Below, in pieces: positions 6,070 to 18,299 of a stretch of 64,000 nt of DNA. Under the pieces are notes generated by a model. It saw nothing but the letters and a program-made list of their open reading frames with translations. It searched no databases and had not been told where the DNA came from. This DNA comes from Gemmatimonadales bacterium (GTDB lineage Bacteria; Gemmatimonadota; Gemmatimonadetes; Gemmatimonadales; GWC2-71-9), in contig DASSGV010000009.1 of assembly GCA_035693225.1 (NCBI GenBank), positions 16,527-80,526 on the forward strand, in the 5' to 3' direction. Both the position numbers and the translations under genes were made by a program. The stretch's first letter is position 1; each line of letters opens with the position of its first letter.

Positions 6070-7965
6070 ATGGACGCGTCGAAGTACACCGCCCTCTTTC
6101 TCGCCGAGAGCCGCGAGCACCTCAGCAGCTGCAACCAGTTGCTCCTCGAGTGGGAGCGCGATCCATCCGTCACCGGCGCCGTGGCGGGGCTCTTCCGGTC
6201 GGTCCATACCCTCAAGGGGATGGCGGCCACGATGGGGTTCGTCCGCCTGGCGGACCTGGCGCACCGGGCCGAAGACCTGCTCGATTCGATCCGCGCCGGA
6301 CGGCTGCAGGCCGATGGCGAGCTGATCGACCTGCTCTTCCGCACCGTCGACGGGCTGGAGAGCGGACTCGAGCCGGCGGCGGCGGGCCGGGATGGCCAGC
6401 TCGACTTCAACGAGTTGACCTCGGCGCTCGATGCGGCCGCGGGGGCCCCGGTGCCGGCGCCCCGCAAGGGTCGCCCCAAGGCGGAGGAGCGTGAGTCGGT
6501 CCCGGTCCGGTTGTCGGTGGCAGCACCGGTGCCGGGCACCGGTCGGGTGGTGAGGGTCAAGGTCGCTTCGGGTTCCGCGATGCCGGGTGTGCGGGCGATG
6601 CTGGCGCTCAAGCGGGCCGAGGCCCTCGGTTCCGTCGGCGGGGTGCAGCCGCCGGCCCAGCAGTTCGAGGGAGAGGCGTTCACCGGGGAGTTCAGCTTCC
6701 GGCTCGATGCGCCGTCGACCGACGCGGAGATCGAGGCCGCCCTGCGGGCCGCCGGAGAGATCGCCTCGGTCGAGATCACCGCAGCGGACGCCGAGGCCGC
6801 GGTCGCGGACCGGGATCAGGGGCGCAATCGTCACATCCGGGTCGATCTCCGCCGGCTCGACGCGCTGATGAACCAAGTGGGCGAGCTCGCCGTGACCCGG
6901 GGGCGGCTCCAGGAGCTGGTGGCGGGGCGCGGGATGCCGGAGGTCGAAGCACTTGCCACGCGGGTCGGGCGCCTGGTGGGCGAGATGCAGACCGAGATCA
7001 TCCAGGCACGGATGACGCCCGTCTGGCAGACCTTCGACCGGTTCCCGCGCGTGGTGCGCGACCTGGCACGGCAACTGGGCAAGCAGGTGCGGTTCGAGGT
7101 CGAGGGCGAGGGGATCGAGCTCGATCGCGCCATCCTCGATGAGATCGGCGATCCGCTCCTCCACCTGATCCGGAACGCCGTCGACCACGGACTGGAATCG
7201 CCGGCGGAGCGCAAGAAGGCCGGCAAGCCGGTCGAGGGACGGGTGACGCTCGCGGCGGCGCAGGCCCGCAACAGCGTCACGATCCGGGTGACCGACGACG
7301 GCCACGGGATCGACCGCGAGAAGCTGCTGGCCAAGGCCAGGCAGGAGGGGATCATCGATGCGTCGGTGGATCGGCTCACCGACGAGCAGATGCTCAAGGT
7401 GGTGGCGCGGGCCGGGTTCAGCACCGCGGCGGAGATCACCGACGTGTCGGGGCGGGGCGTCGGGATCGACGTGGTGGTGTCGCGGGTGCGGCAGCTGGGC
7501 GGCGTGGTGGAGGTCCAGTCGACGCTGGGGCAGGGGACGAGCTTCACCCTGCGGCTGCCGATGACGCTGGCGGTGGTGCGGGTGCTGCTGGCGCGGGTGG
7601 GGTCGGAGCGGTACGCGCTCCCGCTCACCCACGTGGCGGAGACGGTGGAGGTCACCGCGCAATCGCTGGCGGCGTCGCAGACGAAGGACGCGCTCATCCT
7701 CCGCGACCGCGTGGTCCCGATCCGCGACCTGCGGGAGCTCCTGTCGGTGGGCGGGGCCGCGCCGGCGCCCCCGCGGCGCCCGGGGATCGTGCTCGAGATC
7801 GGTGAGCGGCGCACCGCGGTGCTGGTCGATGCGCTGGTGGGACAGCAGGAGATCGTGGTCGAAACGTTCGAGGCGCCGCGGGGGACGCTCCCCGTCTTCA
7901 GCGGTGCCGCGATTCTCGGAGACGGTGCGCCGGCATTGATCCTTGATGCCGCCACGCTGGTGTGA
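6070..7965 (+). CDS. cheA: Chemotaxis histidine kinase CheA
   Basis: 631 aa. Hpt His in FRSVHTLKGMAATMGF. N-box HLIRNAVDHGLE. G1 DDGHGID. G2 SGRGVGIDVV. C-terminal CheW-like P5 domain. No receiver domain. Confidence 0.95.
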   Translation: MDASKYTALFLAESREHLSSCNQLLLEWERDPSVTGAVAGLFRSVHTLKGMAATMGFVRLADLAHRAEDLLDSIRAGRLQADGELIDLLFRTVDGLESGLEPAAAGRDGQLDFNELTSALDAAAGAPVPAPRKGRPKAEERESVPVRLSVAAPVPGTGRVVRVKVASGSAMPGVRAMLALKRAEALGSVGGVQPPAQQFEGEAFTGEFSFRLDAPSTDAEIEAALRAAGEIASVEITAADAEAAVADRDQGRNRHIRVDLRRLDALMNQVGELAVTRGRLQELVAGRGMPEVEALATRVGRLVGEMQTEIIQARMTPVWQTFDRFPRVVRDLARQLGKQVRFEVEGEGIELDRAILDEIGDPLLHLIRNAVDHGLESPAERKKAGKPVEGRVTLAAAQARNSVTIRVTDDGHGIDREKLLAKARQEGIIDASVDRLTDEQMLKVVARAGFSTAAEITDVSGRGVGIDVVVSRVRQLGGVVEVQSTLGQGTSFTLRLPMTLAVVRVLLARVGSERYALPLTHVAETVEVTAQSLAASQTKDALILRDRVVPIRDLRELLSVGGAAPAPPRRPGIVLEIGERRTAVLVDALVGQQEIVVETFEAPRGTLPVFSGAAILGDGAPALILDAATLV

Positions 7966-7973
7966 GGAGACCC

Positions 7974-8594
7974 ATGGACGACGTCCGCGACCTGCAGGCC
8001 CTGCAACTCGACGCGCTCCGCGAAGTGGCCAACATCGGCGCGGGCCACGCCGCCACGGCGCTGGGCCAGATGACCAACAGTCGCATCATGATCAGCGTGC
8101 CGCGGGTCACGGTGCTCCGCCTGGAGGAGGTCGCCGACCTCCTCGGTGCCGCCGACGAGCCCATCGCCGCGGTGATGATGCACATGCTGGGCGACCTGAC
8201 CGGCCGGACGCTGGTCATCTTCCCGGTGCCGTCCGCCAGGACGGTCTGCGATATCCTGCTCCGCCGGGCCCCCGGCACCACGACGGAGTTCGGCGAGATG
8301 GAGCAGTCCGGCATCAAGGAGGCCGGGAACATCCTGTCGAGCGCCTACATGACGGCGCTGAGCGATTTCATGGGGATGATGCTGTTGCCGTCGGTGCCGA
8401 GCCTGGTGATCGACCTCGCCGGCGCGGTGCTCACGACCGCGTACCTCAACTTCGGGCACGATCGCGACTACGTCTTCTGCGTGGAGACGGAATTCAAGTT
8501 CCTGGATTCGCCGATCCAGATCAAGGGACACTTCCTCCTGCTCCCTGACCTGGCCTCGCTGCGGGCCATCTTCGACGCCATCCGCCTGACGTGA
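7974..8594 (+). CDS. cheC: CheC/CheX/FliY-family CheY-P phosphatase
   Basis: Two copies of the D/S-x3-E-x2-N active-site motif (DALREVAN and SGIKEAGN). ATG 7974 is preferred because GAGGAG lies 5 nt upstream. An alternative GTG at 7962 would overlap the cheA stop. Confidence 0.85.
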   Translation: MDDVRDLQALQLDALREVANIGAGHAATALGQMTNSRIMISVPRVTVLRLEEVADLLGAADEPIAAVMMHMLGDLTGRTLVIFPVPSARTVCDILLRRAPGTTTEFGEMEQSGIKEAGNILSSAYMTALSDFMGMMLLPSVPSLVIDLAGAVLTTAYLNFGHDRDYVFCVETEFKFLDSPIQIKGHFLLLPDLASLRAIFDAIRLT

Positions 8595-8601
8595 GCGCGC
8601 C

Positions 8602-11310
8602 ATGACCGGACCGGCTCCGTCGGAACGTGACCTGGCGGTCCTCCGCTCGTTCGCGCGCCGGATCGATCCGTCGGACGCCGGGGCCCACAACAACCTCGGC
8701 GTTTTGTATTACCAGAAGGGCCTGGTGCCGGAGGCCATCGCCGCCTTCGAGCGCTCCCTGGCGCTCGATCCGAAGATGGGCGTGGCCCAGGCCAACCTGG
8801 CCATCGCCTACCAGAACACCGGCTACTACGATCGCCGCGTCGCCGAACTCCGCGAACAACTCCGTCGCCAGCCCGATGACCGCGCGCCCCGCTGGGAACT
8901 GGGGCGGATCTTCGCCGCACTCGGCCAGCACGCCGAAGCGATCGAGGAGTTCGAAGCACTGCTCGCGAGCGCGCCCAAGGACGTGCCGGCGCTCATCCAG
9001 CTCGGCCAGGCGGAGAAGGCGCGCGGCGGGATGGACGCGGCGGCCGAGTGGTTCCGTCGCGCCGCCGAGCTCGATCCGGAGAGCTCCGTGGCCCTCTTCT
9101 ACTTTGGCGAGGCGCTGTATAATCGCGGGCTCAACGAACCCGCCCTCACCGCCCTGACGAAGGCGGTGGCGCTCAATCCCGACAACGCCGACGCCCACTA
9201 CCTGCTCGCCTTCGTGCACGGCGACATGGGCCAGCACGAGGCCGCCCGCGCCTCTACCAAGCGGGCCATCGCGCTCAATCCGACCCTCGGGCGGGCCCAG
9301 GCCAACCTCTCCCTCGAAGAGCGGAAGGCGCAGGCCAGGCGCCGGCGCAACACGCTGGAGGCGCTCCGTCCGGCGGTGACCGAAGGCGGGGTGCTGGCCC
9401 ACTTCAACCTGGGCCTCGCCTTCCGCCAGAAGGGCTACTACGTCGAGGCGCTCCGGGAGTACCGGATGGCGCTGGAGCACGGCGAGGACCGCCGCCTGGT
9501 GCTGCAGGCGATGGCCGAGGTCCACCTCATCCGTCGTGACCTCCCCGCCGCGCTGGAGCTCTACGACCAGCTGGTGCAGGACTTCGCGGACTCTCCCAAG
9601 CTCTGGAACGAACGCGGTGTCTGCCTCCTGCAGGCCGGGCGCGGCGACGACGCGGCGGCCTGCTTTGCCCGCGCCACCGCGATCGATGCGCGGTATGCGC
9701 TGGCCTGGAACAACCTCGGCGTCCTCCGCAGCCAGCAGGCGGACGTCGAAGCGGCCCAGGAATCCTTTCATCAGGCGCTCCGGGCCGTTCCCGGCCTCGC
9801 GGCGGCCCGGCTCAACCTGGCGCTCCTGCTCTTCCAGCTGCGCCGATTCCAGCTGGCGCTCGAGGCATACCGCCAGGTGCTGGCCGACCATCCCCAGAAC
9901 GCCGTGGCATGGAACGGGGTGGGGCTGGTGCTGGTGGAGCTCAAGCGCTACGCCGACGGACGCAACGCGTTCGCGCGCGCCGTCGAGTCGGACGAGACGC
10001 TGGCGGCGGCGCATTACAACCTGAGCTTCACCCTGAGCCATCTCGGCGACTTCGACGGCGCCCTCCGGGAAACGAAGCGCGCGCTCGAACTCGAGCCGTA
10101 CTATGTGCCCCAGAAGTTCTCCCTCACGATCGACCTGCAGTACGAGGACCCCACCATCTCCATCGCGCCGGAGATCTCCGCCGATGTGACCACCGAAGGG
10201 GTGGGTGAGGAGTTCAACTTCGACCAGCGACTGCTCGATCAGCTCTTCACCGAGCTGGAGCCGACCGCACCGCGACCCACCGCGTCGGTCGCGACCGCAC
10301 CGAGCGCCCCTGCGGGAGACGACCCGTTCACCCTCGTGCGCGACTACCTCTCCAAGGGCCTCCTGGACCGGGCCGCGGCGGAGATCGATCGCGCCATCAC
10401 CCGCGGCGCCGACCGCGGCCGGGCGACCACACTCCTGGGCGAGGTCTTCAGTCGCCGCGGCCTCCACGGCGAGGCCCTGGAGCGCTTCCGGGAGGCGCGC
10501 GAGTTCTCTCCTGAGGAACCCGGCGCCCGCCTGGGGGAGGTCCGCGCCCTCCTGGCGATGGATCGCGGTGCCGAGGCGGTGGGCCTGGCGGAAGCGCTCG
10601 TCGTCGCGCGTCCCCACGACGTGGACGTGCTCGTGGTCGGTGCGCGCGCGCGCGCGGCGGCGGGGAACGCGGTCGGTGCGCTCGAGTACGTGCGCGCCGC
10701 GCAGGCGCGCACGCCGGGCCGACCCGAACTGCACCAGCTGCAGGCGGAGGTGGCCACCCAGCTCGGCGATCTCACCGCCGCGGCACAGGCCTACCGCTCG
10801 GCGCTCGAGCTCGATGGATCGCTGGCCCAGGTCTGGTACGGGCTGGGACGGGTGGAGTCCCGGCTGGGCGATCACCGCCAGGCACGCGCCGCCTACGAGC
10901 GCGCCCTCGACCTCCTGCCCACGTTCGTGGAGGCCACGCTCGCCCTCGCCGACCTGGTCCGGCGGGTGGAATCGCCGGCGGCCGCGGTCGATCTCCTCAT
11001 CCCGGTGCTCGAGGCCGATCCGTACGAGCTCGACGCGCTGGCGCTGCTGGGGCGCGCGCTCATCGAGGACGACCGCGCCGACCGGGGCAGCGAGGCCTTC
11101 ATCCGGCTGCTCAAGTTCGCGCCGGACGATGCCGAGGCGCACTACCACCTCGGGCAGGCGCTGGCGCAGCTGCGGCGCTATCCGGAGGCGGTGCAGTGCT
11201 GGGAACGGGTGATGCAGCTGCAGCCGGCGGGTGAGTTGGCCCAGCAGGCGCGTCGCAACGCCCGCTCGGCGCGCGACCTGCAGCACATCTTTGCCCAACG
11301 GAAGGGCTGA
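8602..11310 (+). CDS. Large TPR-repeat protein (902 aa)
   Basis: Repeated 34-aa TPR consensus throughout (e.g. AHNNLGVLYYQKGLVPEAIAAFERSLALDP, AWNNLGVLRSQQADVEAAQESFHQALRAVP). No TM segment, no MCP signalling hairpin. Confidence 0.85.
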   Translation: MTGPAPSERDLAVLRSFARRIDPSDAGAHNNLGVLYYQKGLVPEAIAAFERSLALDPKMGVAQANLAIAYQNTGYYDRRVAELREQLRRQPDDRAPRWELGRIFAALGQHAEAIEEFEALLASAPKDVPALIQLGQAEKARGGMDAAAEWFRRAAELDPESSVALFYFGEALYNRGLNEPALTALTKAVALNPDNADAHYLLAFVHGDMGQHEAARASTKRAIALNPTLGRAQANLSLEERKAQARRRRNTLEALRPAVTEGGVLAHFNLGLAFRQKGYYVEALREYRMALEHGEDRRLVLQAMAEVHLIRRDLPAALELYDQLVQDFADSPKLWNERGVCLLQAGRGDDAAACFARATAIDARYALAWNNLGVLRSQQADVEAAQESFHQALRAVPGLAAARLNLALLLFQLRRFQLALEAYRQVLADHPQNAVAWNGVGLVLVELKRYADGRNAFARAVESDETLAAAHYNLSFTLSHLGDFDGALRETKRALELEPYYVPQKFSLTIDLQYEDPTISIAPEISADVTTEGVGEEFNFDQRLLDQLFTELEPTAPRPTASVATAPSAPAGDDPFTLVRDYLSKGLLDRAAAEIDRAITRGADRGRATTLLGEVFSRRGLHGEALERFREAREFSPEEPGARLGEVRALLAMDRGAEAVGLAEALVVARPHDVDVLVVGARARAAAGNAVGALEYVRAAQARTPGRPELHQLQAEVATQLGDLTAAAQAYRSALELDGSLAQVWYGLGRVESRLGDHRQARAAYERALDLLPTFVEATLALADLVRRVESPAAAVDLLIPVLEADPYELDALALLGRALIEDDRADRGSEAFIRLLKFAPDDAEAHYHLGQALAQLRRYPEAVQCWERVMQLQPAGELAQQARRNARSARDLQHIFAQRKG

Positions 11311-11313
11311 GCG

Positions 11314-12462
11314 ATGGCCATCGAGGGACCGCTCAAGGAGCTCGGGATCCACGATGTCTTCCAGCTGCTCGACCTCAGCCGGAAGACCGGCGTGCTGCGC
11401 GTGTCATCGGAACTGCGCCAGAACGCGGGCACCGTGGTCTTTGCCCAGGGCGCGGTGACGTCGGCGGAGATCCGGTCCAATCCGCACCCGCTCGGGTCGG
11501 TGCTCCTCGCCGCCGGGAAGATCACCCAGGAGGACCTCACCCGCGCCCGCGACATGCAGAAGGCCGGTGATCCCCGCCGCCTGGGCGAGGTGCTGGTCGA
11601 GATCGGCGCGGTCAGCCGGCGGGAACTGGCCCGGCAGGTCCGGGCCCAGGTCGAGGAAGTGGTCTTCGAGCTGATGAGCTGGTCCGAGGGCTACTTCTCG
11701 TTCGAGGAAGGGGTCGCGGCGGGGGTCGCGGAGGCCGATGTCCGGATCACCACCGAAGCGCTGATGATGGAGGGTGCGCGCCGGATCGACGAGTGGTCGC
11801 AGATCCAGCAGCGGATCCCCCATCTGGGGATCGTACCGCGGCTGGCGCCGGGGACCGGTGCCGAGGCCGGGACGATCGACCTGCTGCCGGAGGAGTGGGA
11901 GGTGCTGACCGCGATGGACGGAGAACGGGATGTCCGTTCGGTGGCGGAGGCGCTGGGTCGCTCTGAATTCGACGTGGCGAAGACCCTCTTCGGCCTGGCG
12001 AGCGCCGGGGTGATCATCCTGGACGCGCCGGCCACGGTGTCCGGTGCGGCGCCGAGCCGGGAGCTGGCCATCCTCATTGCCCGGACCGAGGATCGCCTCG
12101 CCAGCAACGATGCGCCGGCGGCACTCCTGGCTGCACAGGAGGTGGTGGCCTCCCATCCGCACGAGCCGATGGCCCATCTGGTGCTCGGGCGTGGCCTCCT
12201 GGCCGTCGGCCGGACCGCCGATGCCGCCGAATCGTTCCGTCGCACGTTACAATACGATGCCGGCTCGGCGACGGCGTATCGTCTCCTGGGGCTCAGCCTG
12301 CTCGCCAGCGGGCGGTTTTCCGAGGGTGCCGAGCAGCTCGACCGCTGGGCGGCGCTGCCCGACCTGCCGCCGGAGGAGCAGGAAGCGACGGAGCAGGTGG
12401 AACGGGCCCGCCAGGCCGCCCGGTCGCTCGATGACGCACTGCGCGGAAAGGGGAGCTCGTGA
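11314..12462 (+). CDS. PATAN (DUF4388) domain protein with MshEN/T2SSE_N-like helical motifs and C-terminal TPR
   Basis: N-terminus GPLKELGIHDVFQLLDLSRKTGVLRV...VVFAQGAVTSA is the typical DUF4388/PatA-N signature. Two LGxxLLxxGxI...L...Q motifs follow (residues about 59-112). C-terminal TPR-like helices. Confidence 0.75.
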   Translation: MAIEGPLKELGIHDVFQLLDLSRKTGVLRVSSELRQNAGTVVFAQGAVTSAEIRSNPHPLGSVLLAAGKITQEDLTRARDMQKAGDPRRLGEVLVEIGAVSRRELARQVRAQVEEVVFELMSWSEGYFSFEEGVAAGVAEADVRITTEALMMEGARRIDEWSQIQQRIPHLGIVPRLAPGTGAEAGTIDLLPEEWEVLTAMDGERDVRSVAEALGRSEFDVAKTLFGLASAGVIILDAPATVSGAAPSRELAILIARTEDRLASNDAPAALLAAQEVVASHPHEPMAHLVLGRGLLAVGRTADAAESFRRTLQYDAGSATAYRLLGLSLLASGRFSEGAEQLDRWAALPDLPPEEQEATEQVERARQAARSLDDALRGKGSS

Positions 12463-13292
12463 ACGACGACATTCGCGCGCTCACCGCCCAGCTGGCTGCG
12501 GACCCGGCGAGCCTGGTCTTCCTTCCCCTGGGCGAGGCGCTGCGCCGTCGCGGCCAGCACGACGTGGCGCAGAAAGTGGCGCTGGCCGGGTTGGGTCGGT
12601 ATCCGCACCTGCCCGATGCCCACGACCTCTTTGCCCGGATCCTGGTCGATCGGAAGGACTTCGAGCGGGCGTTCGACGAGTGGGACATGACGCTGCGCCT
12701 CGATCCCCAGCACGCCGGGGCGCTCAAGGGTTTGGGTTTCCTCTACTACAAGGCCGGCGATCTGCCGCGCGCCCGGGAGCTGCTGGAAGCGGCGCAGCTC
12801 GAGAGCCCCGACGATCCGAGCGTGGTCGCGGCGTTGGCCCGGGTGCGGGCGGAATCGGGATCGGCGCCCGAGGCCGCGTCCGCCGGAGCGCCACCCCTGG
12901 CGCCCTCCACCGAGGCCGATCCGGTCGCGGCCCCGGCATCGGTTTTTGCGGGACTGGAAGGGGCCGAGAATGGACTGCTGCTGGTGGACACCGCCGGCCT
13001 TCGGCTGGGTGGCGGGCTGCTGGATCCATCGGGCGCCGATGTGGCCGATGTCGTGGCGGCGCACCTGGCGGGCGTGTCCCGCGAGGCGCAGCGGACCGTC
13101 CGGCTCCTGGACCTGGGCACCTGGGAGGCGGTCATCGTCGAGGCGCCGAAGGGCAACGCGGCGGTGGTGCCGGCCAACTCGGAATCGCTGCTGCTCCTGA
13201 TGCGGGACGGGAGCGTGCCGCTGGGCCGGCTCCACGTCCTGGCCGACCGCGCCGCCAAGGCCGCCCGCCAGTGGATGGAAGGGATCGCGTGA
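12459..13292 (+). CDS. TPR + Roadblock/LC7-domain fusion protein
   Basis: 277 aa. N-terminal TPRs (PDAHDLFARILVDRKDFERAFDEWDMTLRLDP, AGALKGLGFLYYKAGDLPRARELL). A low-complexity linker. The C-terminal roughly 100 aa has a Roadblock pattern (GLLLVDTAGLRLGGG...DVVAAHLAGVSREAQRTVRLLDLGTWEAVIVEAPKGNAAVVP...LLLLMRDGSVPLGRL). GTGA overlap at both ends. Confidence 0.7.
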   Translation: MNDDIRALTAQLAADPASLVFLPLGEALRRRGQHDVAQKVALAGLGRYPHLPDAHDLFARILVDRKDFERAFDEWDMTLRLDPQHAGALKGLGFLYYKAGDLPRARELLEAAQLESPDDPSVVAALARVRAESGSAPEAASAGAPPLAPSTEADPVAAPASVFAGLEGAENGLLLVDTAGLRLGGGLLDPSGADVADVVAAHLAGVSREAQRTVRLLDLGTWEAVIVEAPKGNAAVVPANSESLLLLMRDGSVPLGRLHVLADRAAKAARQWMEGIA

Positions 13293-13636
13293 CCGCCTGG
13301 ACCGATGCGCTCGAACTCATCACCCGGGTCTCCGGGATCCGGGGCGCGATGGTCGTCTCCGCGATCGACGGGATGGTCGTGGCCGAGTCGCTGATGGACG
13401 AGCTCAAGGGGAGTGCCGTGGCCGCGTTGGCCGCGAGCCTGACGGGCAGGATCGGACGGGCGACCGACGGCGCCGGGCGGGGGGCTCCGCGATTCCTCCA
13501 GCTGCAGGCGACCGGGGGCACCCTGCTGGTGGCGCCCCACGGTCCGGACCTGCTGATCGTCGCGGTGGCCGAACGCACGGTCAATGCCGGACTCGCGCGG
13601 CTGGAGATGTTCCGGGCCGCGGAGCTGGTGCGCTGA
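13289..13636 (+). CDS. Roadblock/LC7-domain protein (MglB/MglC-like, 115 aa)
   Basis: GTG 13289 within frame 12044-13636. LELITRVSGIRGAMVVSAIDGMVVAESL...SAVAALAASLTGRI...LQLQATGGTLLVAP...LLIVAVAE is the classic alpha-beta-alpha-beta-beta Roadblock pattern. Confidence 0.75.
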   Translation: MTAWTDALELITRVSGIRGAMVVSAIDGMVVAESLMDELKGSAVAALAASLTGRIGRATDGAGRGAPRFLQLQATGGTLLVAPHGPDLLIVAVAERTVNAGLARLEMFRAAELVR

Positions 13637-14097
13637 TGCGCGCCGTCGAACCGTGGGTGGAGGGGCCGGTGGCGGCATTCCTCGCCGAGTCGGAGGCGCG
13701 GCTGGTGCTGCTGATGACCTCCTCCGGCCAGGTCGTGGCCCAGCACGGATTTGCCCGGGCGGTGGACGTGATGGGGGCCGCCGCGCTCGGCGCCGCGATC
13801 GTCGCCTCCACCGGGGAGATCGCCCGTACGCTCCAGTGGACCCCCTTCGGCGTGATGGTCCACCAGGGACCGGCACAATCACACTTCCTGGCCGCTTTCG
13901 AGACGCCGCGCGGCCGGTGGATCGCGCTGGTGGTGTTCGGGGGCGATACGTCGCTCGGCATCGTGCAGCTGTTCTTCGAACAATTGGTCAAGGATCTCGC
14001 CGCCGCGGTGCCCGCGGCCCCGCCGGCGCAGCCCGTGCTGGCGGAGAACTTCGAAAGCGAGCTCAATTCGAGCTTGCGATCGCTCTTCGGACGCTGA
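13636..14097 (+). CDS. mglB: MglB-type Roadblock/LC7 GTPase-activating protein
   Basis: 153 aa, immediately upstream of mglA as in Myxococcus mglBA. By eye it aligns block by block with M. xanthus MglB: [16 protein letters not shown] ~ VVFLVDKNGQLISSAG, and [26 protein letters not shown] ~ VLVVIFDNRTSLGLVRLRIKKASDEL. It has an acidic/amphipathic C-terminal tail. Confidence 0.8.
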
Positions 14098-14101
14098 CGC
14101 C

Positions 14102-14704
14102 ATGTCCCTCGTCAACTTCACGACCCGCGAGATCACCTGCAAGATCGTCTACTATGGCCCCGGACGATCGGGCAAGACGACGAACCTGCACTATATATAC
14201 GGTCGGGTGCCGGACACCCGGCGGGGGAAGATGGTCTCCCTCGCCACCCAGACGGACCGTACCCTGTTCTTCGACTTCCTCCCGCTGGAGCTGGGGCAGA
14301 TCTCCGGCTTCACGACGCGGTTCCAGCTCTACACCGTCCCGGGGCAGGTGTACTACAACGCGACCCGCAAGCTGGTGCTCCAGGGCGCCGACGGCGTGGT
14401 CTTCGTCGGCGACAGCCAGGGACGCCGTCTCGAGGACAACATCGAGAGCCTCCAGAACCTGCAGACGAACCTGCTGGAGCAGGGGATCGACGTGCGCCAG
14501 TTCCCCACGGTGTTCCAGTACAACAAGCAGGATCTTCCTCCGGAGCTCATTCTGAGCGCCGCCGAGCTGGATGACGCCCTCAATTTCCGTGGCGCGAAGA
14601 GCTTCCCGGCCGACGCGGTCCACGGCAGCGGCGTCTTCGAGACGCTCAAGGGCATCTCCGAGCTCGTCCTCAAGCGCCTGGCGCAGAATTCCCCCGTGGG
14701 ATGA
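14102..14704 (+). CDS. mglA: MglA-family Ras-like small GTPase
   Basis: 200 aa. Near-collinear with M. xanthus MglA from memory: [21 protein letters not shown] (P-loop), [12 protein letters not shown] (Arg-finger-equivalent region), [10 protein letters not shown] (catalytic Gln), QYNKQDLP (NKxD). Confidence 0.93.
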
Positions 14705-16674
14705 CCGACCAGCTCAACCCGCGGTTCCGCCTGGACAGCTACGTCGTCGGTGCGGCCAATCGGCTGGCCGTGACGGCGGCGCGCGCGGTGGCCGAGTCGC
14801 CGGCGACGGCCTACAACCCGCTCTTCATCTATGCCGGTCCCGGCCTCGGCAAGACCCACCTCCTGATGGCGATCGGCCACCAGGCCCGGACCATCGACCC
14901 GCAGCTCTCGGTCGAGTATGTGACCCTCGATGACTTCGTGGAGGCGTACAACGCCGCCATCGCGGCGGGCCAGGGTGATGCCTACCGGAAGCGCTACGCC
15001 GAGACGGGCGCCCTGCTGATCGACGACGTGCAGTTCCTGACCCACCGGCGCGAGGTGCAGGCGGAGCTCCTTCGGCTGGTCAACACGATGACGGCGGCGG
15101 GCCGTCAGATCGTGATGACGAGCGACCGCCCGCCGGCCGAGATCGAGGCGCTGGACGAGCGGCTGATCCAGCGCTTTGCCGGCGGGCTCGTCATCGACAT
15201 CGGCGCCCCCGATTTCGAGACCCGTGTCGCGATCCTCCGCCGGCAGTGTGACGACCGGGGTGTGGCGTTCGCTCCCGGCGTCATCGAGGTCGTGGCGGAG
15301 ATGGGGGCGGGGAACGTCCGGGAGCTGATCGGCGGGCTCAACCGCCTGGTCGCGGTCCAGTCGGTCAGCGATCGTCCGATCGACGCCGAGCGGGCGCGCG
15401 ACGCCCTCGGTGGCGGGCCCCGGTCGACGGCACCGACGGGGGCCGGGTCGGTCCCGGGGAATGACGCCGCACCCCCGGCACCGCTGGAGACGGCGGAGTT
15501 CGACGCCTTCCTGAGCGAAGTGACGGTGACGCTGTCGCAGCAGGTCGAGGCGTGGCGCGCGCGCGTGGGCGAGGCGATCCTGCGCTGGGAAGGGGAGGGA
15601 TATCGCACCGCGCGACTCACCGAACTCCTCGACCAGGAGGCGCCTCCCGATCCGGAGGCGACGCTCAAGAGTTTCGTCGCCGACGTCGAGCGGTTGCGGC
15701 GGTTGGAACGGGAGGCCGCCGAGCTGGATCCCGAGCTCGCCGGGGTCGCGGCGTTCCGCGATCCCGACGGGTTGGTGGCCGCCGAATCGCTCCTGGCCCG
15801 GGCCCGCTCCGGCGCCACGCCGCCGCCGGGACCTTCACCGTTGTGGCGGCTGGAGGAGTTCGCCGAAGGACCCTCCAACCAGGTCGCGGTGCGCGCCGCG
15901 GGGACGATCATCCACGAACCCGCGGTCAAGTACAATCCGCTCGTGATCGTCGCCGGCAGCGGGCTCGGCAAGACCCACCTGCTCCACGCCATCGGCAACC
16001 AGCTCGCCGCCGCACCGGAGTCCGTGGTGGCGTGCCTGGGTGCCCAGGACTTCACCGAGAACCTCATCGAGGCCATCGACCGTGATCGGGTGGCGCTCTG
16101 GCGGGCGCGGTATCGCCGGGTCACCGCGTTCCTGCTCGACGACGTGCAGCTCCTGGCCGGGCGCGACCGGAGCCAGGAGGAGCTCTTCTGGCTCTTCAAC
16201 CAGCTGGCGGAGCAGGGGCGCCAGATGGTCTTCTCGAGTGCGGTGGCGCCGCGCGACCTGGTGGGCATCGAGCCGCGGCTGGTGAGCCGGTTGGAGGGTG
16301 GCCTGGTGGTGACGCTCGAGCCTCCCGGGCGCGACCTCCGGCTGATGGTCGCCCGCCGTGAATTGGTCGAGCGGACCGGTGCGGCGGACGATGAGCTGGC
16401 GCAGTATCTCGCGGCGCGGCCGGCGGATTCGCCCCGGGCGGTCCTGGGCCTGGTGCAGCGCGTGCTGCAGGCGGCGGAGGCCCAGCAGCTCCCGCCGAGC
16501 GCGGGGCTGGCGCGCGAGCTGCTCGAAGGGGCCACCGAGCGCCCGGCGCGCAAGAGCGGCGGCCGGCGCTCCAGCGGGATCGTGGTCTCGGCCAGCGGCG
16601 GCGTGAAGAGCGTCGAGAAGATGGTCTGGGCGTGGCCCGACACCGCCGACCGCCTGATCGAGGATCTCCGCTGA
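14701..16674 (+). CDS. Protein with two tandem DnaA/Hda-type AAA+ modules and no DnaA domain IV
   Basis: 657 aa. Module 1: Walker A GPGLGKTH (14836-14856), Walker B LLIDDVQ, sensor [10 protein letters not shown], box [29 protein letters not shown], sensor [14 protein letters not shown]. Module 2: GSGLGKTH (15955-15975), [44 protein letters not shown]. The roughly 150-aa linker is helical/low-complexity. No C-terminal HTH DnaA-box-binding domain is recognisable. ATGA overlap with the mglA stop. Confidence 0.85.
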
Positions 16675-18299
16675 TGGCGATCAAGGGATCCCTGAAGGAG
16701 GCGAGCCTTCCCGACGTGCTGCAGCTCCTTTCCCTGGGGCGCAAGAGCGGCTGCCTGGCGGTCGCGGACCGCCAGAACTTCGGGTACATCTACTTCGACG
16801 AGGGACGGATCTGTTTCGCGTCGATCGTCAACCGTCGCGACCGGCTCGGCGACCTCCTGGTCAAGAACGGGCGGATCTCCCAGTCGCAGCTGCAGCAGGC
16901 CGTGGATCTCCAGGAGGAGCTCCGCGACCAGAAGCTCGGCGAGATCCTCGTCAACAGCGGCGCCATCAAGCGGATCGACCTGGAGGAGTACATCCGGCTC
17001 CAGATCGAGGAGGCGGTGTACTTCCTGTTCACCTGGGCCTCGGGGACCTTCAACTTCGAGGCGGGGGTCCGCCCCGACCGCCAGGACTTCCTCGTCAACA
17101 TCAATCCCGAGTCGCTCTTGCTCGAAGGGGCGCGCCGGGTGGACGAGTGGAGCCTGATCGAGAAGAAGATCCCGTCGTTCGACCTCATCTTTTCGCTCGA
17201 CCAGAAGCACCTGGAGGGCTCCCAGGTCAGCCTCTCGCCGGAGCAGGAGCGGTTGCTCCCGCTCCTCGACGGCCGCCACGACATCCACCAGCTCGTGGAG
17301 GACAGCGGCCTGGTGGAGTTCGAGGTCGGCAAGGCGCTCTACGGGTTCATCACCGCCGGGTTCGCCCATCGGGTGGGGAGTTCGACCGGGGCCGCGGAGC
17401 CCAGTGTCAGCGCCGCGCGGGTGGACGAACATCGCAACCTCGGCATCGCCTTCTACAAGACCGGGATGCTCGATGAGGCGCTGCGGGAGTTCCGCCGGGT
17501 GGCCGACCTCCGCCCCTCGGAGGCCAGCGCGCCCTTCTACGTCGGGCTGATCGCGCTCAAGCAGGCCAAGTGGTCCGAGGCCGTCGAATCGCTCCGCCTG
17601 GCGCTGGATCGGGGCGGGCCGCGGTCGGCGGCGCTCTACAACCTCGCCTTCGGCCTGGAGCGGATGGGCAAGCTGGACGACGCCGAGGCGACCTACGGCG
17701 AGGCGGTGACCCGGGCGCGCGACGACGCGCGGATCATGACCGGCTGGGCGATCGCGGCGCTCAAGCGGGGCGACGCCTCCGTCGCGTCGGGGCGGCTGCA
17801 GCGCGCCCGGGAATTGTGGGGCGCGAAAGCACCGCCGGCGATCTGGTACTGGGCCACGGCGCTTGCCCATGCGGTCGAATCCGACCTGGAACAGGCGATC
17901 CTGGTGGCCCAGGAGGGTGTGACGGCCTTTCCCACGCACGCGGTGCTCAAGAACAACCTGGCGGTGCTCCTGGAGCTGACCGGCGATGTCGCCGGCGCGG
18001 AGGCGGCCGTCCGCGAGGGGTTGAGCGAGGATCCCTCGGTGCCGCAGTTGTCGAAGAACCTGGGCGACCTGCTCTATCGGGCCGGCAAGTACGACGAGGC
18101 GGACGAGGCGTACCAGCGCGCGGCCAAGCTCGCCCCCGACCTCGGCGACGACCTCTACTTCAAGCTCGGGAACATCGCGTTCCGCCAGCGCGACACCGAT
18201 CGCGCGCGCGCCCAGTGGCAGCGGACCGTCGAGCTCAATCCCGATCACCAGCTGGCGCGGAGCAACCTGGAGTCGATGTCCTCCGAGGCCGCGGGATGA
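16674..18299 (+). CDS. PATAN (DUF4388) domain protein with MshEN/T2SSE_N-like motifs and C-terminal TPR (paralog of 11314-12462)
   Basis: ATG 16674 within frame 16632-18299. GSLKEASLPDVLQLLSLGRKSGCLAV...IYFDEGRICFA. RLGDLLVKNGRISQSQLQQAVDLQ + KLGEILVNSGAIKRIDLEEYIRLQ. The blocks WASGTFNFEAG and LLLEGARRVDEWSLIEKKIP mirror WSEGYFSFEEG and LMMEGARRIDEWSQIQQRIP in the paralog. At least 5 C-terminal TPRs. Confidence 0.78.
   Translation: MAIKGSLKEASLPDVLQLLSLGRKSGCLAVADRQNFGYIYFDEGRICFASIVNRRDRLGDLLVKNGRISQSQLQQAVDLQEELRDQKLGEILVNSGAIKRIDLEEYIRLQIEEAVYFLFTWASGTFNFEAGVRPDRQDFLVNINPESLLLEGARRVDEWSLIEKKIPSFDLIFSLDQKHLEGSQVSLSPEQERLLPLLDGRHDIHQLVEDSGLVEFEVGKALYGFITAGFAHRVGSSTGAAEPSVSAARVDEHRNLGIAFYKTGMLDEALREFRRVADLRPSEASAPFYVGLIALKQAKWSEAVESLRLALDRGGPRSAALYNLAFGLERMGKLDDAEATYGEAVTRARDDARIMTGWAIAALKRGDASVASGRLQRARELWGAKAPPAIWYWATALAHAVESDLEQAILVAQEGVTAFPTHAVLKNNLAVLLELTGDVAGAEAAVREGLSEDPSVPQLSKNLGDLLYRAGKYDEADEAYQRAAKLAPDLGDDLYFKLGNIAFRQRDTDRARAQWQRTVELNPDHQLARSNLESMSSEAAG

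Follow-up and report, generated by a model that had tools for sequence, protein, structure and literature searches.

Three Roadblock genes beside a second MglA gene in uncultured Gemmatimonadales: an MglB-type protein and two sister paralogs as a candidate regulator set

Why should a single small-GTPase gene of the MglA family be preceded by three consecutive genes for Roadblock/LC7 proteins? The question is raised by a stretch of 64,000 nucleotides (the window) from a Gemmatimonadales bacterium (GenBank assembly GCA_035693225.1, contig DASSGV010000009.1, positions 16,527 to 80,526 of the forward strand), where an earlier note, made from the letters alone, had placed three such genes upstream of mglA, one of them fused to tetratricopeptide repeats (TPR). 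All three open reading frames (ORFs) are present, and their starts agree with those of their homologues. In window coordinates, the three genes and the GTPase gene are:

12459-13292, + strand: TPR-Roadblock fusion of 277 amino acids (aa), matching Pfam TPR families and Robl_LC7
13289-13636, + strand: Robl115, a stand-alone Roadblock/LC7 protein of 115 aa, matching Robl_LC7
13636-14097, + strand: MglB2, a divergent Roadblock protein of the MglB family, 153 aa, similar to solved MglBs
14102-14704, + strand: MglA2, 200 aa, a group-1-type MglA paralog similar to Myxococcus xanthus MglA

We read the triplet as what would be a dedicated regulator set of a second MglA switch, MglA2, inside a Che/PATAN/TPR cluster of uncultured Gemmatimonadales. 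By analogy with M. xanthus, and with moderate confidence, we propose that MglB2 is the GTPase-activating protein (GAP) of MglA2, and that the other two proteins provide an MglC-like accessory, possibly a heterodimer, which ties the GAP to TPR, PATAN or Che partners.

The first step is to ask which kinds of Roadblock protein these are. MglB2 itself has no Pfam match, and a precomputed PF03259 hit is carried by some of its orthologues. As a single sequence it finds M. xanthus MglB with an E-value of 7.6e-8, and its family profile, searched against the Protein Data Bank (PDB), finds M. xanthus MglB at 1.5e-14 and Thermus MglB at 2e-9, MglB2 being aligned to MglB across residues 15-123; the sole further match, 9jue, is non-significant (E 0.51). 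The NCBIfam model for Thermus MglB gives only 25 bits, where the cut-off is 200, so MglB2 is a divergent member. Its C-terminal helix bears a motif that is almost invariant in the family, VLAENFExELNxSLRxLFGR, which aligns with the ...IDKLFG of the canonical MglB of the same genome (MglB1, see below) and is similar to the ...IDNLF with which M. xanthus MglB ends. Judged by these similarities, MglB2 is assigned to the MglB family and is specifically MglB-like. Most of its relatives are named 'hypothetical protein' in the databases.

Robl115 matches Robl_LC7 (PF03259) with 40.5 bits, and the fusion does so with 27.1 bits over aa 172-247, besides its TPR families (Pfam cut-off 23). The AlphaFold2 (AF2) model of Robl115, with a predicted local distance difference test (pLDDT) score of 92.7, has the complete alpha-beta-beta-alpha-beta-beta-beta-alpha Roadblock fold, and Foldseek superposes it on 9jue with template modelling (TM) scores of 0.87-0.89, on M. 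xanthus MglB with 0.80-0.86 and on p14/MP1 (LAMTOR2/3) with 0.82-0.86. The profile of the Robl115 family retrieves 7f8m (5.4e-12), dynein roadblock and MglB (3e-4) from the PDB. The AF2 model of the fusion (mean pLDDT 83) consists of eight TPR helices at aa 2-133, forming about four TPR hairpins, a disordered and variable Ala/Pro-rich linker at aa 136-170, and a beta-beta-alpha-beta-beta-beta-alpha domain at aa 173-276, in which the usual N-terminal helix alpha1 of Roadblock proteins is missing. Foldseek relates the first half of the fusion to TPR structures and its C-terminal domain to the archaeal Roadblock structures 9jue and 7f8m (E 6e-6; target-normalised TM 0.74); the profile of that domain finds 7f8m at 3.5e-5, 9jue at 5e-5 and Thermus MglB at 1.6e-3. 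The Roadblock pattern noticed earlier in all three proteins is therefore borne out, by Robl_LC7 and fold for the fusion and Robl115 and by MglB similarity for the 153-aa protein, save that the fusion's domain is modelled without alpha1. The refuting outcome named in the earlier note for the first two regions, a lack of any Robl_LC7 or structural match, has thus not occurred. At the usual site of that helix, directly before beta1, lies an F-x-G-L-E-G-A segment (aa 163-169, window 12945-12965) that is invariant in the homologues and is left unstructured by AF2 (pLDDT <50 up to residue 170). We regard it as a candidate partner-binding motif. The fusion has 1080 homologues, nearly all labelled Gemmatimonadales, and their automatic database labels name TPR or Roadblock/MglB-family proteins.

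Comparison of the three proteins with one another divides them. In hhalign, the fusion's Roadblock domain and Robl115 are related with a probability of 91% (E 1.1e-6, 97 columns), whereas profile-profile comparison of the MglB2 family with either of them gives less than 1% probability. Both also match generic Roadblocks better than MglB, and the best solved relatives of the pair, in sequence and in structure, are Asgard archaeal Roadblock homodimers (9jue, 7f8m, 7yh1; PMC10933270), although these are stand-alone proteins of unknown partner, encoded outside mglA operons and without a TPR fusion. Robl115 and the fusion's domain are accordingly classified, from their profiles, as sister paralogs of a generic Roadblock type, and the triplet as one MglB-type protein plus this sister pair. 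The same figures rule out that all three Roadblocks are recent copies of one another. In the alignments, the conserved alpha2 segments of the triplet proteins are Ala/Gly-rich.

The resemblance of Robl115 to p14/MP1 invites a different reading of the pair, as a Ragulator- or Mon1-Ccz1-like heterodimer that would serve as an exchange factor for guanine nucleotides (GEF) or as a nucleotide-state-specific scaffold for MglA2, opposing MglB2 instead of docking on it. Eukaryotic Roadblock/longin heterodimers are GTPase platforms (PMC10933270, PMC3747258), alpha2 hardly varies over its N-terminal half in either Robl115 or the fusion, and a dedicated MglA GEF is still in question, as the RomR/RomX case is disputed (PMC13408092). 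However, Robl115 is no more similar to LAMTOR than to MglB or the archaeal homodimers, the only established bacterial Roadblock GEF is MglB itself, a GEF role finds no support in our data, and the accessory genes never occur without MglB2 in the loci examined. We consider this reading quite unlikely. A related idea keeps MglB2 at its centre: the fusion and Robl115 might form an obligate heterodimer stacked on an MglB2 homodimer, a bacterial, cis-encoded counterpart of Ragulator whose TPR arm hands the complex to the chemosensory output. Like Ragulator/LAMTOR, the locus would offer several different Roadblock subunits to one GTPase system. Unlike there, the sequence relation is limited to the shared fold, stacking is hypothetical, and neither a LAMTOR1-like wrapping subunit nor Rag-type GTPases with Roadblock domains of their own are present. 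We find this arrangement possible but doubtful; if true, a Che pathway would here be wired compactly to a small-GTPase switch, with every part within one operon.

Is there a functional GTPase for such a set to act on? MglA2 finds M. xanthus MglA with an E-value of 1.4e-72, and its motifs are intact: the P-loop, DRT with the Arg finger, TVPGQ (TxxGQ in place of DxxGQ) and YNKQD. By its motifs MglA2 qualifies as a group 1 MglA, and since P-loop, Arg finger, Gln and NKxD are kept, there would be something for an MglB-type GAP to act on. MglA2 is about 50% identical to the MglA1 of its own genome, which belongs to a canonical mglB-mglA pair on another contig (C25; locus L002, 1399-2637), adjoining ybaB/recR and encoding MglB1 (180 aa) and MglA1 (224 aa). 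MglB1 and MglA1 score 116 and 293 bits against their M. xanthus counterparts, compared with 36 and 246 bits for MglB2 and MglA2, and MglB2 is 32% identical to MglB1 (E 2e-16) in an alignment that includes the C-terminal ...LFG. These scores rule out the 153-aa protein as the MglB ortholog that it had been taken for; MglA2/MglB2 is better described as a second, divergent paralogous system beside the canonical pair. Compared with MglA2 and M. xanthus MglA, MglA1 carries about 32 inserted aa near its C-terminal third.

The genome contains a fifth Roadblock gene as well, a lone one on contig C112 (L001, 1420-1839), which encodes 139 aa, adjoins no GTPase gene and matches PDB 7f8m (1.4e-9) and CvnB5 (1.4e-6). 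It could be an adaptor of the canonical MglA1/MglB1.

Whether the triplet behaves as a unit was then judged from gene junctions and related loci. The genes around it are:

7962-8594, + strand: CheC gene, part of the + strand gene run
8602-11310, + strand: TPR protein of 902 aa (TPR902)
11314-12462, + strand: PATAN (DUF4388)-TPR protein 1 (PATAN1), with a DUF4388 match of 109 bits and TPR matches, overlapping the start of the fusion gene
14701-16674, + strand: double DnaA-like AAA+ protein (2xDnaA), with Bac_DnaA at 317 bits in two stretches, overlapping the mglA2 stop
16632-18299, + strand: PATAN-TPR protein 2 (PATAN2), followed by cheR

PATAN1 and the fusion join at a GTGA at 12459. The fusion and Robl115 genes join at a GTGA at 13289-13292, where the GTG start of Robl115 overlaps the stop of the fusion, and Robl115 and MglB2 join at a TGATG at 13634-13638; both overlaps of the triplet had been read correctly in the earlier note, except that the second is one of 1 nucleotide (nt) in TGATG and not an ATGA. 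Four nt separate the end of mglB2 from the start of mglA2. Relative to the closest relative, the ratio of nonsynonymous to synonymous substitution rates (dN/dS) is 0.13 for the fusion, 0.08 for Robl115, 0.12 for mglB2 and 0.01 for mglA2, so that all three Roadblock genes are under purifying selection. That they are spurious ORFs of a genome with 70% GC is ruled out by these ratios, by hidden Markov model and structure matches, and by the number of homologues, from more than 300 to 1400 per gene.

For the comparison, 50 loci from six families were collected, 30 of which are limited to about 3.3 kb around the Roadblock genes, and 80 loci from named genome records were added, giving 129 loci in total; gene presence was scored by tblastn. 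In the 50 loci the order CheC ... PATAN1, TPR-Roadblock, Roadblock, MglB2, MglA2, 2xDnaA, PATAN2 is kept wherever the stretch reaches those genes. All three Roadblock genes are found in 127 of the 129 Gemmatimonadales loci, the exceptions being one divergent weak hit and one contig end, and the order from PATAN1 through the triplet to MglA2 is constant in 127 of them, so the triplet does co-occur in related genomes. Overlaps recur likewise: the fusion stop and the Robl115 start overlap by 4 nt in 115/126 loci, Robl115 and MglB2 by 4 nt in 80/128 and by 1 nt in 38/128, and mglA2 and the AAA+ gene by 4 nt in 100/121, while the gap between mglB2 and mglA2 is 2-7 nt in most of 128 loci and at most 20 nt in 121 of them. 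The triplet is inherited as one block and is translationally coupled. Overlaps of 4 nt often go together with matched synthesis of subunits that are partners.

This coupling bears on a further explanation, namely that shared regulation joins three separate homodimers that never enter a single hetero-oligomer: MglB2 would be the GAP, Robl115 would serve as a polar adaptor resembling MglC, and the TPR-Roadblock protein would be a dimeric TPR effector of MglA2-GTP. The solved prokaryotic Roadblocks among our matches (MglB and the archaeal proteins) are all homodimers, and M. xanthus has effectors of MglA-GTP that are TPR proteins, such as SgmX (PMC11580455), but a domain modelled without alpha1 would make an unusual homodimer, and the fusion gene overlaps that of its sister paralog by 4 nt in the great majority of loci. 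We judge such a set of homodimers unlikely.

Some relatives lack the triplet. In four genomes from two genera (L055-L058; G067, G094, G135 and G102), CheC, TPR902, PATAN1, MglA2, 2xDnaA and PATAN2 are intact, none of the three Roadblock genes is present, and the PATAN1 ORF directly abuts mglA2. Each of these genomes has two Robl_LC7 matches, MglB1 and a lone Roadblock, the latter of which may be the counterpart of the C112 protein. In two further genera (L139 and L140; G113 and G167), only MglA2 followed by a PATAN-TPR gene is left. The catalytic motifs of MglA2 are kept in the genomes without the triplet, and no locus with only one or two of the three Roadblock genes was found among the loci examined. 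Further families and orders of the class also have the triplet, and the genera without it belong to the same order; by this distribution, loss would be more parsimonious than gain. Block inheritance, coupling and joint absence fit a triplet acting together on MglA.

The same genomes bear on the idea that the two extra Roadblocks regulate the double DnaA-like AAA+ protein, or are general PATAN/TPR adaptors, independently of MglA2 and MglB2. The passage of PMC4316618 that cites Koonin and Aravind (2000) has the Roadblock/LC7 superfamily proposed as a general NTPase regulator, and the AAA+ gene shares an operon with mglA2, to which it is translationally coupled. Yet the AAA+ and PATAN genes persist unchanged in the four genomes after loss of the triplet, the extra Roadblocks are again never seen without MglB2, and their genes sit between PATAN1 and mglB2, not beside the AAA+ gene. 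This explanation seems to us improbable.

How might the triplet work on MglA2 under the reading that we prefer, that of a GAP with an MglC-like accessory? By analogy with solved MglB structures, MglB2 would be a Roadblock homodimer and the cognate GAP, whose two-helix face would bind MglA2-GTP and position the Arg and Gln that MglA2 itself provides; the conserved C-terminal helix of MglB2 may touch MglA2 in the way known for the Ct-helix of Myxococcus MglB. Robl115 and the fusion's Roadblock domain would most likely heterodimerise, with the MglB2 dimer or MglA2 as their docking site, MglC-style, so that the flexible linker and the TPR domain could tie GAP activity to the PATAN-TPR proteins, the 902-aa TPR protein or Che proteins, and the chemosensory pathway could determine the place and time at which MglA2 is turned off. 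Our data show which domains the proteins have, their paralogy, their co-inheritance and their translational coupling; we infer the GAP activity, the formation of a heterodimer, its docking and the partner of the TPR domain. A precedent is the RomR/MglC/MglB complex known from M. xanthus, where two MglB dimers offer their four-helix faces to an MglC dimer, which binds them via MglB K14, R115 and K120 (PMC10329633), a KRK patch that is contacted by the FDI surface of MglC (PMC10329633), and in seven mglA_1 loci an MglB-clade and an MglC-clade gene lie side by side (PMC4719450). In common with the M. xanthus module of MglA, MglB, MglC and RomR (PMC10329633, PMC4719450), the present locus has a group-1-type MglA with intrinsic Arg and Gln, a candidate GAP of the MglB family with a C-terminal helix, extra non-MglB Roadblock proteins and a linked chemosensory (Frz-like) pathway. 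It differs in having two accessory Roadblock domains rather than one, with one of them fused to TPR, in encoding everything in cis in one translationally coupled operon within a Che cluster, and in being a second system beside a canonical mglB-mglA pair. Moreover, no RomR, RomX or RomY was identified here. RomY is not a Roadblock protein.

Several observations weigh against the proposal. No chain named MglC occurs among the profile matches of Robl115 and the fusion's domain (E up to 1), nor among the 50 structural matches listed for Robl115. In an alignment read against PMC10329633, R115 and K120 of M. xanthus MglB correspond to Q111 and Q116 of MglB2, and thus the MglC-binding KRK patch is not kept; this lowers the chance that the accessory is an MglC, not that it works like MglC, and any docking would have to use other chemistry. 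Besides, G68 in the MglA-contact helix of M. xanthus MglB corresponds to E61 in MglB2. The six genomes that have MglA2 and lack the triplet mean that the triplet is dispensable for the core, and its co-loss is weak evidence of interdependence, as the three genes are adjacent, one deletion removes all of them and the independent events were probably few. Finally, one genome of another genus (G038, genus g11; L048, 7776-8354) retains all three Roadblock genes beside an MglA2 counterpart that is only 39% identical and has SGVAALLD for TDRTLFFD, so that Arg finger and switch I are lost, AIPDQ (G to D in TVPGQ) and TKHD for NKQD. This protein may be a pseudo-GTPase, in which case an active GTPase may be unnecessary for the triplet.

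Roadblock domains, MglB, MglC and 1:2 MglA:MglB loci are already known. The mglA_1 loci with two mglB-family genes (PMC4316618, PMC4719450) resemble the present one in that a group 1 mglA has more than one Roadblock gene beside it, of which a single one belongs to the co-evolving MglB clade, but they are 1:2, whereas the ratio here is 1:3 and includes a TPR fusion. For Gemmatimonas aurantiaca, Wuichet and Sogaard-Andersen (2014) list the loci 'MglB>MglA>' and 'PATAN>MglA>-PATAN>' (PMC4316618); these are the sole Gemmatimonadetes entries of that survey, and the latter's neighbourhood lacks Roadblock genes such as those found here. This second arrangement is the one seen in the four genomes from two genera that lack the triplet. 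In the literature that was searched, we found no paper on a TPR-Roadblock fusion, on a three-Roadblock mglA locus (1:3) or on the Gemmatimonadota module beyond that 2014 table. New are the split into an MglB-type gene and a sister pair, the absence of alpha1 from the fusion's domain, the recognition of the system as paralogous and the all-or-none triplet, which would make the triplet at MglA2 a new elaboration of a polarity switch already known in bacteria. The way in which small GTPases gather Roadblock proteins around them is under active study, with regard to bacterial polarity (MglB, MglC, RomR) as well as to the origin of Ragulator-like eukaryotic platforms. The partners in Myxococcus are scattered over the genome and were found one by one, whereas here one coupled operon holds a candidate GAP, two accessory Roadblock domains, a TPR arm, PATAN proteins, an AAA+ protein and a Che pathway. 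It offers a defined protein list for reconstitution, along with natural variants that lack exactly the three Roadblock genes for comparison; as the organisms are uncultured, such work needs heterologously expressed proteins or a cultured relative.

How far does the module extend, and what may it control? A search of genome contigs with the Robl115 alignment returned labels almost throughout from Gemmatimonadota/Gemmatimonadales, one being only 'uncultured bacterium'. In a sample of 201 genomes of the phylum, MglB1 is found in 142 and the 115-aa Roadblock in 130, the latter only in families with MglB1, save two borderline hits (E about 4e-4 to 8e-4) in one family (f7) that has no MglB1. Two contigs carrying the module (L070, L106) are labelled Acidimicrobiia and Thermoleophilaceae; their genes are 54-60% identical to Gemmatimonadales genes, and they are probably mis-binned. 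The window has a G+C content of about 70%, the source genome measures 2.68 Mb and is 99% complete, and the nearest database relatives of the window are labelled Gemmatimonadales metagenome-assembled genomes. In that genome, FHIPEP (FlhA, flagellar export) has no match, T2SSE-family ATPases have at least nine, and the four genes for methyl-accepting chemotaxis proteins all lie outside this Che cluster, which has none. From these findings we infer that a type IV pilus or another polar machine is a likelier output of the cluster than flagella. Both PATAN-TPR proteins also score above the NCBIfam cut-off of 38 bits for an MshE-related cyclic di-GMP-binding motif, PATAN1 with 39.3 and PATAN2 with 46.5 bits.

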